Made by a program: the position numbers and the translations under genes
The notes under the pieces: model-generated
What the model was told of the DNA's origin: nothing
Databases searched by the model: none
Seen by the model: the letters and a program-made list of their open reading frames with translations, nothing else
From: Polaribacter sp.
GTDB taxonomy: Bacteria > Bacteroidota > Bacteroidia > Flavobacteriales > Flavobacteriaceae
Assembly: GCF_036480315.1 (NCBI RefSeq)
Contig: NZ_JAZGGG010000020.1
Location: 42,443 to 106,442 of the forward strand
Direction of reading: 5' to 3'
DNA: 64,000 bases
Part shown: positions 14,244-19,090 of the stretch, one piece after another
How positions within the stretch are numbered: the first letter of the stretch is position 1
Layout: every line of letters starts with the position of its first letter

Positions 14244-15556
14244 ATGGAAGATACTAAAGGAATTTTATCTAAAGAAAAAACAAACGATTGGCTACAAAGA
14301 TTAAAAAATGAAAGCTGGGAAGCTGAATTATTAGTTTCTGCAATTGCTATTTTTGGTACTTTTCAATTATTTAAAGTAATAAATTGGACCACAAATTGGT
14401 TTATAGACATCTTAACGCCTAACCAATATATTTATGCTTACTTTATAGTGTTTTTTGGCTTAATAGCCATAAGCACATTGGTTGCAATGTTTATAATACA
14501 CTTTTTTTTACGAGCCTATTGGATTGGTCTAGTAGGTTTAAATTCTGTTTTTTCTGATTATAGTATAGAAGACAGTGCATATTCAAAAATTTATACAGAA
14601 AAAATACTTTCAATCTTACCAAAACTAACAGATTCAATACAAAAAGTAGACAAACTATGTAGTGTTATTTTCTCTGTAGCTTTTACATTTTTACTAATGT
14701 TTGGCTACATAGCATTACTCGCAAGCATCTACTTATTACTGTTTAATTTATTATCTGACTATGTTTCAATATATATATATTATTAATTCCTGCTATAATA
14801 TTTTTGATTATTTACTTTTTACAGTTAATTATTTCTGTAATTGCTAACATAAAAAAATATAAAAATGATACCAAAATTCAGACTTGGTATTTTCAGCTTG
14901 TAAAAATTGGTTCTATTTTTATGTTAGGTCCTTTGTATAAAAATATTTTACAAATAACAATGATTTTTGGCTCTAACTTCAAGAAAAACAAATCGTTAGT
15001 AATGCTAATTATAGCTTTTTTATGTTCAGGAATGTTAGTTTCTTTTGTTAAAATTGATGATACTAATATCTTTTATTTAATTGATAAATCTTTCGATATA
15101 CCTACAGATAATTCTAAACCTTTTTCTAGTTATTATAAGTCTGAAGATAGTAGTGTAGATTTTTTATTAACACCACAATTAGAATCAGATGTTATTACCA
15201 CTAAACTCACAAAACTCTTTATTCCTATTTTTGAACACGAGCGAAAAAACTTTCAAAAGAACTGCCCCGAATTTAAAGATGATGATACCAAGAGTAGAAA
15301 TGAAAATAGAATAAAAGACAGGGAAAACAAATTAGATTGTTACCATAATTACAATCAAATATTAATAAATGATAAAATTATTGAAGTAAATTTCAATAAA
15401 TATCACCATCCAATAACAAAACAATTCGGAATTATTTGTTATTTAAAATCTAGCAATTTTATAGAAGGAAAGAATATTTTAATTGTCAACAAATTGAATG
15501 AAATAGGAAAAGACAAAACAAATTGGCTCATTCCTTTTCAATATTATAAAGACTAA
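14244..15556 (+). pseudogene. Membrane protein gene split by a frameshift at an (AT)6 tract
   Basis: ORFs 14244-14786 and 14804-15556; removing one AT from 14769-14780 gives a continuous 436-aa frame (...SIYILLIPAIIFLII...). Confidence 0.8.
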
Positions 15557-15562
15557 TTACTT

Positions 15563-15585
15563 AAATCCGCCAAGGCGGATTTTTT
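15563..15585 (+). terminator. Intrinsic terminator
   Basis: aaatccgcc-aa-ggcggattt followed by T tract, between convergent genes. Confidence 0.75.
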
Positions 15586-15633: not shown

Positions 15634-16845
15634 TTATTTTTTTATTACCTCCTTTTTTAAAACTTTCATTAAAAAAAGTAAGGTTAAAACTCCTACAAGT
15701 GCAAAAACGGTTATTACATTCCAAGTAAATTCGTAACCGAATTCAGCAATCATTTGCATACCAACATTATGGCTAAAAATATGGGCTAATGAAAATGAAA
15801 TACTATATAAGGCCATATATTCTCCTGGATTTCCTTTTTTTGACCTCTCTACTGCAAACGCGTTAGAAAACGGAAAAGCCATCATTTCTCCAATAGACAT
15901 CAACACCATTCCTATCCATAAAATTCCAACCCAAGAAGTTAAATTTAAAACGATATAACTCATGGCAACTAAAAATAGACCAATAGCAACTAATTTAATT
16001 TTCGAGGTTTTAGAATTTTGTAACCAATCTATTAATGGCATTTCAAATATAAAAATGAAAAGTCCGCTAAACCCCATTAATAAACCAATTTCTAATTCAT
16101 TTAACATTCTTATCTCTTTATAATACAAAGGAATTGTAGAGAAATACTGTAAGAAGACAAAGCCAAAAATAAACATAGCAACAAAAAACACCCAAAAAGC
16201 CTTGTCTTTATATGCAGAAATAGGGTTTTCTACCTTAATTTCTGCTTCAACTTTTGATTTCTTGGGATGTAAAACTTGTAACAATAAAAAAGCAGCTAGA
16301 ATACAAGTAACTCCATCAACCCAAAATAATCCTTGGTAACTAAAAAAAGTAATAATTAATCCACCAATTGCAGGTCCAGCAGAAAAACCTAAATTAATTG
16401 CCAATCGAATTAAAGTCACAGAACGGGTTCTGTTTTCTGGCTTGCTATACGCATTTAATGCAACAAACATTGCAGGTCTAAAAGAATCTGCTACTAACAT
16501 TACAAAGAAAATTCCTGCACAAAAAGTTTCAAAAGTATTAGCAAATTGCAACAACACAAAAAGAATTCCCGTACCAATTAAACTAAATAGCATCACCTTA
16601 TAATAACCAATTTTATCAGTTAATTTCCCTCCAAGCCAAGTACCAAAAACTGATCCTATACCAAAGAAAGACATGATCCAACCAACATCAGAAAGTGAAA
16701 AACTTAAACTGTCTGATAAATAAATTGACAGAAATGGTATAACCATAGTTCCTGCTCTATTTATAAGCGTAATTAATGACAACCACCAAACCTCTCTAGA
16801 GAGTCCGCTAAAAGATTTTATGTAATTATTATATAGTTTTTTCAT
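15634..16845 (-). CDS. MFS transporter (drug/metabolite exporter-like)
   Basis: GGKLTDKIGY motif A, about 12 TM segments. Confidence 0.92.
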   Translation of the reverse strand: MKKLYNNYIKSFSGLSREVWWLSLITLINRAGTMVIPFLSIYLSDSLSFSLSDVGWIMSFFGIGSVFGTWLGGKLTDKIGYYKVMLFSLIGTGILFVLLQFANTFETFCAGIFFVMLVADSFRPAMFVALNAYSKPENRTRSVTLIRLAINLGFSAGPAIGGLIITFFSYQGLFWVDGVTCILAAFLLLQVLHPKKSKVEAEIKVENPISAYKDKAFWVFFVAMFIFGFVFLQYFSTIPLYYKEIRMLNELEIGLLMGFSGLFIFIFEMPLIDWLQNSKTSKIKLVAIGLFLVAMSYIVLNLTSWVGILWIGMVLMSIGEMMAFPFSNAFAVERSKKGNPGEYMALYSISFSLAHIFSHNVGMQMIAEFGYEFTWNVITVFALVGVLTLLFLMKVLKKEVIKK

Positions 16846-16868
16846 GGTTTATTAATTGGTATAAAAGT

Positions 16869-16900
16869 AAAAAAGTCCGACTGTGAAGTCGGACTTTTTT
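16869..16900 (-). terminator. Attenuator terminator in the MFS 5' leader
   Basis: Perfect 14-bp stem aaaaaagtccgact / agtcggactttttt ending 24 nt before the MFS start codon. Confidence 0.8.
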
Positions 16901-16926
16901 AATTGTTTGATTTTATATTGATATTA

Positions 16927-17001
16927 TCAAAACATATAAACGTACCGACTTTTTCGTGAAATACACGATTGCTTGGTTAAATATGTAATGACGTTCCTCA
17001 T
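16927..17001 (-). CDS. Putative leader peptide (24 aa) of the MFS gene
   Basis: MRNVITYLTKQSCISRKSRYVYMF*; codons K-S-R contain aagtcgg, complementary to the 5' arm of the terminator. Confidence 0.65.
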   Translation of the reverse strand: MRNVITYLTKQSCISRKSRYVYMF

Positions 17002-17100
17002 CTTAAATTTCTAATTATGGTATAAAACTACATAAAATATCAATATAAAAACCAAAAATTATTTTCTTTCTTGTATTTTAGAGCAAAACTTAAAAAAAAC

Positions 17101-17481
17101 ATGAAAAAATTAAAAACCAGTCATATATTAATTACTGCATTTATAGTAATAGTAAGTCTTCTATTTATTTCTACTTATTTAAAAGACAATAATGTTTCTA
17201 ACTTAAAAGAAAACGGAATTGTAACGTTGGCAATCATCAGTAAAATAGATGCAAACAATTATAGAGCTAATGAAATGGATGGGTCTAAAATTGAAAACTA
17301 TATTTTTACCTTTAATTTTTCTGTAAACGAAGAAAAAATAAAAAGTATAAGAACTGTTGAAAAGAAAAATTTCTCTAAATTCTTTAGCAAAGAATTATTT
17401 GTAAATGATACTATCTCTATTTTATACGATCCATCAAATCCTAGAAATAATAAAATCAAAGAACTAACAACCGTAGAATAA
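17101..17481 (+). CDS. Hypothetical protein with N-terminal TM helix
   Basis: ATG at 17101 preferred to TTG at 17071; ends in ILYDPSNPRN as in DUF3592-like proteins. Confidence 0.7.
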   Translation: MKKLKTSHILITAFIVIVSLLFISTYLKDNNVSNLKENGIVTLAIISKIDANNYRANEMDGSKIENYIFTFNFSVNEEKIKSIRTVEKKNFSKFFSKELFVNDTISILYDPSNPRNNKIKELTTVE

Positions 17482-18530
17482 TGATATTTAAAAAGAGAAT
17501 TTTATACGCTGCAATCATTTTACTACTATTATATATTGCTAATATTTTTATTTCTACAGGATATTTTAGAACTATAGAAAATAAGTTTGAAGGAAAAATT
17601 CTAAAAGAAATTTCTCTTCCTGGAGCAGAAGATATTATTGTAAGTAAAATTGATAGTTTTGCTATTATTTCTTCAACAGCTAGAAACAAATTCCCAAATA
17701 TAGATCAAGAAATTGGTGGTTTGTATTTCATTGATTTAAAAAACACTACATACAAACCAATTCATTTAACAAAAAACTTTAAGAAGTCTTTTGCTCCTCA
17801 TGGAATTTCAATTTATAAGAAAGATGATGTATACACAATTGCCGCAATAAACCACACCAAAGAAGGGGAATTAATTGAATTTTTCGAATTGAAAGACCAA
17901 GAGTTAAATCATACTAAAACTTTAAAAGATGAATTGATTTTTAGTCCTAATGATATTGTTTTATTAGATGAAACTCGTTTTTATTTCACCAATGATCATA
18001 AATATCATAATGGATTACAACGATTAGCAGAAGACTATTTAGGTTTGGCTATTTCAAATGTTATTTATTTCAACGGACAAAACTATACACAAGCTGCAGA
18101 CGGAATTGCTTATGCAAACGGAATTAATTTTGACAAAAACAGAAACTTACTTTTTGTTGCATCACCAAGAGCATTTTTATTAAAAGTCTATCAAAAAAAT
18201 GAAGACAATTCTTTAACTTTTTTAGAAGACATCGATTGTAAAACTGGAGTTGATAATATAGAATTTGATGCTGAAGGAAATTTATGGATTGGTTCGCATC
18301 CAAACCTAATGCATTTTTCTTCTTATGCAAAAGGTGATGAAAAAATATCGCCATCAGAAATTATTAAAATTAATTACAGAAAAAAAGGAGATTATACTAT
18401 TGAACAAATCTATATGGAAGATGGTACAGAAATGTCTGCTTCTACGGTTGCTGCAACTTTTAATAATTTAATTTTAATGGGTAATGTTATGGATGATAAA
18501 TTTCTAATTCTAGAAAGAAATTCTAACTAA
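17481..18530 (+). CDS. Paraoxonase/arylesterase-like six-bladed beta-propeller (SMP-30/strictosidine synthase superfamily)
   Basis: GAEDI, PHGI, SPNDIV...FYFTNDH, ANGI, VDNI motifs; signal anchor. Confidence 0.85.
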   Translation: MIFKKRILYAAIILLLLYIANIFISTGYFRTIENKFEGKILKEISLPGAEDIIVSKIDSFAIISSTARNKFPNIDQEIGGLYFIDLKNTTYKPIHLTKNFKKSFAPHGISIYKKDDVYTIAAINHTKEGELIEFFELKDQELNHTKTLKDELIFSPNDIVLLDETRFYFTNDHKYHNGLQRLAEDYLGLAISNVIYFNGQNYTQAADGIAYANGINFDKNRNLLFVASPRAFLLKVYQKNEDNSLTFLEDIDCKTGVDNIEFDAEGNLWIGSHPNLMHFSSYAKGDEKISPSEIIKINYRKKGDYTIEQIYMEDGTEMSASTVAATFNNLILMGNVMDDKFLILERNSN

Positions 18531-18547
18531 ATTTATACATTCGCAAT

Positions 18548-19090
18548 ATGAAAAAATCAATTACAATCTTATTGCTACTTTTAATGACAATCTCTTGTGG
18601 AAGTGGTAAGTCTTTCCAAAGTTTTTTCAACGATCATAAGAGTGATATTGGTGTAACAGCATTTCAAGTTCCTAATTTTATGCGCGCTTTAATCAGTACT
18701 ATTTCACCAGAAGTTAATAATTTAATTGGTAATGTAAACGATTTAAAATTCATCACTTTTAACGATATTTCTAAAGAGAAACAAACACAATTAATTAATG
18801 AAATGAATTTAGTTACAAACGCTAATTTCACAGATATGTTACGAAGTAACCAACCTGAAAAAACAAAAATTATTTCTGTAAAAGAAGATGGAGATGTGGT
18901 AATACAAGCAATTATTTTTAATTCAACTTTAGCAAAAACCTCTGTTTTTTATTTAAAAGGTCGTTTCGATCCTAATAAAATAAAGCAACTTTCTGAAACA
19001 AATCAGTTCGAAGAATTATCTAGCAAGTTAATTCAGAATTACCAAGTTCATACAAAGCAACTAATTACACCAGGTTTTAATCCTAATTAA
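18548..19090 (+). CDS. DUF4252-like lipoprotein
   Basis: Lipobox TISC; size and sequence pattern. Confidence 0.7.
   Translation: MKKSITILLLLLMTISCGSGKSFQSFFNDHKSDIGVTAFQVPNFMRALISTISPEVNNLIGNVNDLKFITFNDISKEKQTQLINEMNLVTNANFTDMLRSNQPEKTKIISVKEDGDVVIQAIIFNSTLAKTSVFYLKGRFDPNKIKQLSETNQFEELSSKLIQNYQVHTKQLITPGFNPN

Follow-up and report, generated by a model that had tools for sequence, protein, structure and literature searches.

Attenuators that sense the ribosome and induce resistance genes have been studied in depth in Firmicutes and in some Proteobacteria and Actinobacteria. In the Firmicutes systems of the bmrB-bmrCD, vmlR and lmo0919 type, stalling of the ribosome on an upstream open reading frame (uORF) induces the downstream gene, and some of these systems answer several translation inhibitors and not a single pairing of peptide and drug. 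The attenuator of lmo0919 in Listeria reportedly came to light in Term-seq work. Here, we describe a leader on the minus strand of a Polaribacter sp. genome, located in the window (the whole stretch of 64,000 nucleotides that was analysed) directly 5' of a gene for a transporter of the major facilitator superfamily (MFS). Comparative sequence evidence makes it quite probable that this element is a ribosome-dependent, trp-type four-segment transcription attenuator controlling the DHA1-like MFS gene.

The closest described systems fall into three kinds. The classical attenuators, namely the trpL, hisL and thrL leaders of E. coli and the ilvE and hisG leaders of F. psychrophilum as presented in PMC9723704, share with the leader examined here the logic of the alternative pairings 1:2, 2:3 and 3:4. 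They likewise have segment 1 in a short translated ORF, an intrinsic terminator immediately 5' of the gene and no need for a protein factor. Unlike them, the present leader has no run of regulatory codons, no conservation at the amino-acid level and no sequence kinship with them, it would regulate a transporter, and all of segment 2 together with the stop codon lies inside the pairing. The bmrB-bmrCD and vmlR systems of B. subtilis (vmlR as outlined in PMC9226507) and lmo0919 of Listeria are alike in placing a uORF and a terminator/antiterminator before an efflux or protection gene. They belong to another phylum, however, and their sequences are unrelated; initiation is not led by Shine-Dalgarno pairing in the present case, for which induction by antibiotics is a prediction. 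The streptococcal mef(E)/mel system, in the account given in PMC4335068, also uses leader-peptide transcription attenuation before an MFS efflux gene, but the mef leader needs a macrolide-specific stall, whereas the present leader carries no conserved arrest motif and its MFS protein is not a Mef ortholog (PF05977 match of 23.5 bits, below the cut-off of 27).

No Rfam 15 family was matched at its gathering threshold; the best scores, MicC with 35 bits (threshold 90) and Thr_leader with 30 bits (threshold 55), covered the hairpin only. In the literature searched, leader-peptide attenuators of drug-response genes were described only in other phyla, and those of flavobacteria were leaders of amino-acid operons only; transcriptome papers on the genera that carry the switch did not appear among the results. 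The mechanism is of a known kind, and the switch family, absent from Rfam and from the literature searched, is uncatalogued.

The features of the locus are the following.
17023..17030, minus strand: putative promoter, a Bacteroidota-type -7 box TAGTTTTA (consensus TAnnTTTG), 21 nt 5' of the uORF ATG
16927..17001, minus strand: leader ORF (uORF) of 24 codons plus TGA, with an A-rich start context and A at -3
16975..16992, minus strand: segment 1, the 5' strand of the anti-antiterminator (GTCA..ACATAT..ACC, codons 4-9), paired to segment 2 in both the MFE and the centroid fold
16954..16968, minus strand: small apical hairpin P1 (TCGTG-loop-CACGA, codons 12-16), present in both folds of the leader, with and without the terminator 3' arm
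16926..16951, minus strand: segment 2, the 5' part of which, AAGTCGG(T)AC (16951-16942), is the antiterminator strand
within 16926..16951, minus strand: 3' part of segment 2 (GGT, ATATGT and TGAT, including the stop codon), pairing with segment 1
16902..16925, minus strand: A/T-rich spacer from the stop codon to the terminator
16868..16901, minus strand: intrinsic terminator (segments 3 and 4), a 15-bp stem with core GTCCGACT/AGTCGGAC, loop TCAC and a T-tract
15634..16845, minus strand: the gene predicted to be regulated, encoding a 403-aa, 12-TM, DHA1-like MFS transporter (PF07690, E 4e-55)

Read along the minus strand, the uORF of 24 codons is followed by a 25-nt A/T-rich spacer, the 15-bp hairpin with its T-tract and the MFS start at 16845, and the switch region as a whole occupies about 180 bases directly 5' of the MFS gene. 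The 24-aa peptide is exactly the one given in the preliminary description, and the gaps of 26 and 24 nt reported there fit a 14-bp stem to within one base. The stem, measured at 15 bp with 15/15 perfect pairs, begins 25 nt after the stop codon and ends 22 nt before the MFS ATG. It is flanked by an A-tract and a T-tract, and the intergenic region contains no terminator-like site besides this hairpin (16901..16868). Since that region (16846-17100) is divergent, the upstream neighbour starting with the ATG at 17101 on the plus strand, no gene ends at the hairpin. A REP-like repeat identity of the hairpin was rejected, as it occurs only once in the 3.06-Mb genome.

The divergent neighbours (17101-19090, plus strand) encode a 126-aa protein that has a hydrophobic segment at its N terminus and matches no family, an arylesterase/SGL-like protein whose ATG (17481) overlaps the preceding stop by one base, and a DUF4252 protein. 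Within the 1.5 kb 5' of the leader in relatives, an arylesterase-like gene was found at 5/28 loci and the 126-aa protein at 2/28. With no conserved neighbour on the upstream side, the leader is to be assigned to the MFS gene, with which it travels. No regulator gene linked to the leader was found among the upstream neighbours compared in relatives.

At the other end of the MFS gene, between its stop (15634) and a convergent 250-aa ORF (14804-15556), a GC-rich hairpin AAATCCGCC-AAGG-GGCGGATTT lies at 15563-15582 with A- and T-run flanks. It is probably a bidirectional terminator, which would make the MFS gene monocistronic in this window. On the leader side, the segment after the T-tract (16846-16867) contains a conserved TAYTTTTA (TACTTTTA here), which looks like a Bacteroidota -7 box lacking a TTG at -33 and may either prolong the U-tract or act as a weak secondary promoter.

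The MFS protein itself was assigned to MFS_1 in general only, by its PF07690 match. Against the NCBIfam drug-efflux models it scored only below threshold (for example, tet_MFS 45.9 against a cut-off of 475 and cmx_cmrA 38 against 400), and it did not reach the cut-off of any specific resistance model of the Tet, Cml/Cmx, Mef, QepA or NorA class. The nearest solved structure by sequence was NorA, with an E value of 3e-11 over the N-terminal half. The database name was 'MDR family MFS transporter', and neither the family models, the PDB sequence matches nor the database names gave anything narrower. The protein may be an exporter of translation-targeting drugs.

Folding of the full leader gave -35.3 kcal/mol (z = -4.4), a stability reached by 0/200 shuffles. 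In this fold, a long irregular stem spans the uORF, with P1 at its tip and the terminator following. In the segment 1:2 stem, GUCA, ACAUAU and ACC of codons 4-9 pair with GGU, AUAUGU and UGAU of codon 19 to the stop. When the 3' arm of the terminator is omitted, P1 stays and AAGUCGG(U)AC of codons 17-20 pairs with the terminator 5' arm, the complementarity (16951-16942) that had been proposed as an antiterminator. The leader has the four segments of a trp-type attenuator with the pairings 1:2, 2:3 and 3:4. The preliminary description had recognised 2:3 and 3:4, and the TCGTG/CACGA hairpin that it had placed just upstream forms in both folds; it had missed the anti-antiterminator 1:2 (codons 4-9 with codon 19 to the stop), the pairing that makes the switch depend on the position of the ribosome.

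The three pairings were assessed for covariation among relatives. RNAalifold on a MAFFT alignment recovered the terminator only, because the uORF part was misaligned between clades, and explicit structures were therefore tested on an alignment made with a covariance model (CM), which had been built from 16 leaders. The terminator pairing was kept in 97.7% of cells across 90 leaders, with compensatory changes in 8/12 pairs. The antiterminator pairs (A4 columns 90-98 with 154-162), which were outside the model used to build the alignment, were paired in 79.5% of cells, as compared with 14-49% when slid by 1-3 columns, and their 10 double-change cells were reached in 0/500 shuffles. The segment 1:2 helices (A4 columns 18-20/111-113 and 26-31/103-108) were 86% and 84% paired, and 7/9 pairs had double changes, these counts being biased toward the CM to which the alignment was fitted. 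Covariation also links a segment-1 base of codon 4-5 to the second base of the stop codon, UGA or UAA (CG 39, UA 19, UG 14). Compensatory changes were therefore present in the terminator, the antiterminator and the anti-antiterminator alike.

Individual lineages illustrate the same pattern. Where the terminator stem is altered, segment 2 carries the matching change, as in GTCCGGCT/AGCCGGAC, GCCCGACT/AGTCGGGC, GTCCAAC/GTTGGAC and GTCTGGCT/AGTCAGAC, and an altered stem CCAGTTG in another family is matched by CAACTGG in segment 2. P1 also has compensatory variants in orthologs (tcgta/tacga, gtgg/ccac, ggtag/ctacc and ccgt/acgg). By sequence, a terminator lies between the uORF and the gene, an antiterminator excludes the terminator, and an anti-antiterminator overlaps the uORF. 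Among the orthologs, both the uORF frame and the antiterminator covariation are kept, and the proposal of a leader-peptide attenuator with its antiterminator in the 3' part of the uORF, controlling the MFS gene, has gained strong comparative support.

An A-rich start context with A at -3 is a described pattern of translation initiation in Bacteroidota. The uORF ATG is invariant across the leaders and lies in an A-rich context, with A at -3 in 85% of 108 unique leaders. A TAnnTTT(G/A) box is found in 107/108 unique leaders, with its end 17-25 nt (mostly 19-21) 5' of this ATG, and the TTT of the -7 box is invariant in alignment A1; we take TAnnTTTG to be the Bacteroidota promoter consensus. The same TAnnTTTG-type box is seen at F. 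psychrophilum SigA promoters in PMC9723704. The uORF is accordingly a short ORF in a translatable context downstream of a promoter.

The reading frame has been maintained. Across the 90 unique leaders it is open over 21 codons in 88, whereas the two remaining frames are open in 1 and 18, and in 84/84 leaders it is open over 24 codons, when composition-matched shuffles gave a mean of 10.8 and a maximum of 20. Its length in the 90 unique leaders is 23-28 codons (24 in 51 of them), length changes are always in frame, and in 71/90 the stem core lies 29-32 nt beyond the stop codon. The encoded peptide presents a different picture. Variability does not differ with codon position (mean entropy of 1.16, 1.22 and 1.23 bits for positions 1 to 3), so that there is no codon periodicity. 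The codon of Thr6 is ACA in 73/90 leaders and the synonymous ACT in only 2; that of Tyr7 is TAT in 70/90 and TAC in only 1; Arg19 is encoded by CGG in 58/90, the position otherwise being TGG, CGT or AGG. These conserved codons, ACA, TAT and CGG, are all paired within helices and are fixed as nucleotides. The Arg codons AGG, CGA and CGG, singled out in the preliminary description as a sign of structural constraint, are indeed the ones used here, and a place in the structure was found for CGA, in P1, and for CGG, in the antiterminator. Given a maintained frame, no codon periodicity and codons fixed as nucleotides, the sequences indicate that the open, translated uORF frame is under selection and the peptide is not.

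The effect of ribosome position was examined by folding 88 leaders with ribosome footprints masked. The terminator forms in 87/88 full-length leaders. With the ribosome masked at codon 7, the antiterminator forms in 84/88, and with the ribosome masked at the start codon in 83/88. With no ribosome and the leader cut before the 3' arm, the antiterminator is the MFE structure in 58/88 (as equilibrium folds) and the 1:2 pairing is present in 35/88; when the stop codon is the masked position, 41/88 leaders still have a formally free AAGUCGG core. Since the antiterminator is free in many of these equilibrium folds, the OFF states rest on an order and timing of folding borrowed from trp, and we infer that they would depend on folding kinetics.

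Considering the pairings and the masked folds together, we propose the following course of events. Transcription would start about 12-14 nt before the uORF, at the Bacteroidota -7 box. In the OFF state, segment 1 (codons 4-9) would hold segment 2 (codon 19 to the stop), the GTCCGACT/AGTCGGAC hairpin and its U-tract would form, and the transcript would end 22 nt before the MFS start codon. In the ON state, AAGUCGG of segment 2 would pair with the terminator 5' arm, and RNA polymerase would read into the gene. A ribosome that reaches the stop codon would cover segment 2 and so lead to termination, and with no ribosome on the leader the pairing of segment 1 with segment 2 would have the same outcome. 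A ribosome stalled or slowed within approximately codons 2-13 would cover segment 1 and free segment 2, so that the antiterminator could form. The most likely signal would be a general slowing of early elongation, such as that caused by ribosome-targeting antibiotics, by which the pump would be induced. Antibiotic induction is a candidate because the predicted pump is DHA1-like, has NorA as its nearest solved relative and bears the name 'MDR family MFS transporter'; we place induction by ribosome-targeting antibiotics or translation stress just short of probable.

The distribution of the leader was assessed with the CM and with the hairpin core. One strong CM match per genome was found in approximately 92/151 genomes of the same genus group, and matches were found in 48/150 other genera of the family; outside the family, they were found only in 2/17 families of the order. 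All the strong matches checked, 111 in number (92/92 and 19/19), lie directly 5' of the MFS ortholog on the same strand, and the MFS orthologs in the related genomes examined all have the same upstream arrangement. The exact hairpin core is present in at least 120 species genomes (one genome per species) from at least 16 named genera. The 80 core matches listed are all from marine Flavobacteriaceae, among them Tenacibaculum, Polaribacter, Algibacter, Flavivirga, Wocania, Tamlana, Lacinutrix, Kordia, Seonamhaeicola, Mariniflexile and others. Among loci picked by the hairpin alone, a uORF of 24-28 codons stood at the same distance in 69/70 that had enough flank.

One large genus group within the family, apparently Flavobacterium, gave 0/9 CM matches. 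For this reason, and because its promoter sequence is unlike the leader, the MFS permease THC0290_0574 of F. psychrophilum was dropped as a lead; according to PMC9723704, it has a mapped SigA start 138 nt upstream (a 138-nt 5' UTR) and its own 5' transcribed segment by an IS3 element. Six weak CM matches (L105-L110, 45-55 bits), which could have been taken for a switch before other genes, were rejected as false positives: each is the 3' end of a conserved gene (...IGVPVVLGKNGIE..IVE.NL) followed by a AAAAATCCAGCT hairpin terminator. They are relevant to the score threshold for the switch family.

Degenerate versions of the leader occur naturally. At one locus (L103, G144), the MFS gene is broken and the terminator has decayed; in another (L104, G125), the uORF ATG has become ATT, the terminator is mismatched and the T-tract is weakened. 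A TAG is present at uORF codon 10 in a third (L048, G024), and in Polaribacter sp. IC066 (L157) the uORF has 17 codons and the antiterminator strand (segment 2) is absent. The decay of leader and gene together was counted in favour of an attenuator.

Two alternatives assign the sensing to what the uORF encodes. In an amino-acid-sensing attenuator, the hungry codons would be Thr6-Tyr7, Cys/Trp13 or Arg19, and the MFS protein would move a related metabolite. It is in keeping with this that most leaders encode Thr6, Tyr7 and, six codons ahead of the stop, an Arg, that Cys and Trp are unusually frequent, and that leader-peptide attenuators of amino-acid operons exist in flavobacteria, as described in PMC9723704. 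However, the uORF contains no runs of any codon and no run or enrichment conserved as amino acids; its conservation is at the nucleotide level in bases that are paired, codon periodicity is lacking, and the gene downstream is not biosynthetic. We regard amino-acid sensing as improbable. The other alternative, a drug-specific arrest leader of the Erm/Msr/Cml type, had been suggested by the K/R-x-K/R macrolide motif, at which a ribosome with bound antibiotic would stall. K17-S18-R19 is present in the window, and arrest leaders control efflux or protection genes elsewhere, as reported for mef(E)/mel (PMC4335068) and msrD (PMC10314930). The motif is not conserved, though: the residue two before Arg is K, S, Q, E, T, L or M, and only CGG is kept, as nucleotides. 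Moreover, its position is within segment 2, so that a ribosome arrested at the motif would occlude the antiterminator strand, the opposite of what is needed. A conserved motif freeing an activating structure, as in ErmBL, ErmCL, ErmDL, MsrDL and CmlAL, was not found in these leaders; with no codon periodicity and no amino-acid-level constraint on the peptide, an arrest leader is very improbable.

Two further alternatives separate the hairpin from a ribosome-driven switch. The uORF and hairpin might be an independent small gene or small RNA, with the MFS promoter downstream of or overlapping the T-tract. The conserved TAYTTTTA would suit such a promoter in its resemblance to a -7 box, as would the 90-125 nt between hairpin and MFS ATG in some genomes. 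Against this, the distance from stem to ATG is only 22 nt here and the family median for hairpin to ATG is about 32 nt, no TTG stands at the -33 distance, and the peptide lacks protein-level conservation. In addition, the mimicry of the terminator 3' arm by the ORF, with its covariation, would have no role in an independent small gene, and the leader and the MFS gene decay together. This explanation seems highly improbable to us. The leader might instead be a ligand- or protein-binding RNA, riboswitch-like or subject to factor-dependent antitermination, with a frame that is incidental or secondary. The hairpin core and the unpaired motifs AAGCAAT and TCG are conserved far beyond the needs of pairing, which recalls the conserved T-box sequence in tRNA-sensing leaders. 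An incidental frame is hard to reconcile with one that is open in 84/84 leaders when about 11 are expected, with conserved positions of ATG and stop and with in-frame indels; nor was there an Rfam family match or a linked regulator gene. We consider a ligand- or protein-binding leader very improbable.

The ribosome-dependent attenuator accounts for the frame and the three pairings, and the conservation of the hairpin goes further. In about 190 related loci, the hairpin core is near-invariant, often with the loop TCAC, even though the MFS proteins are only 45-70% identical. This exceeds what three-way pairing obviously demands, and a sequence-specific partner is possible. The broader reading, in which this would be the first antibiotic- or translation-stress-responsive family of ribosome-sensing attenuators in Bacteroidota and the hairpin would also supply a second input through a trans-acting partner that reads it, be it a protein or the released leader in the role of a small RNA, we consider unlikely.

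As a system for testing, the leader is well delimited, highly conserved and simple to mutate, and it belongs to a phylum in which translation initiates without Shine-Dalgarno pairing. Its carriers are abundant marine genera, including Polaribacter, Tenacibaculum and Algibacter, and some are fish pathogens treated with ribosome-targeting drugs. If confirmed, the switch would form a new family for RNA catalogues, and the leader and its mini-gene would be annotated. It would also point to a function for an uncharacterised core MFS transporter, and it would serve as a natural reporter of translation stress in marine Flavobacteriaceae.
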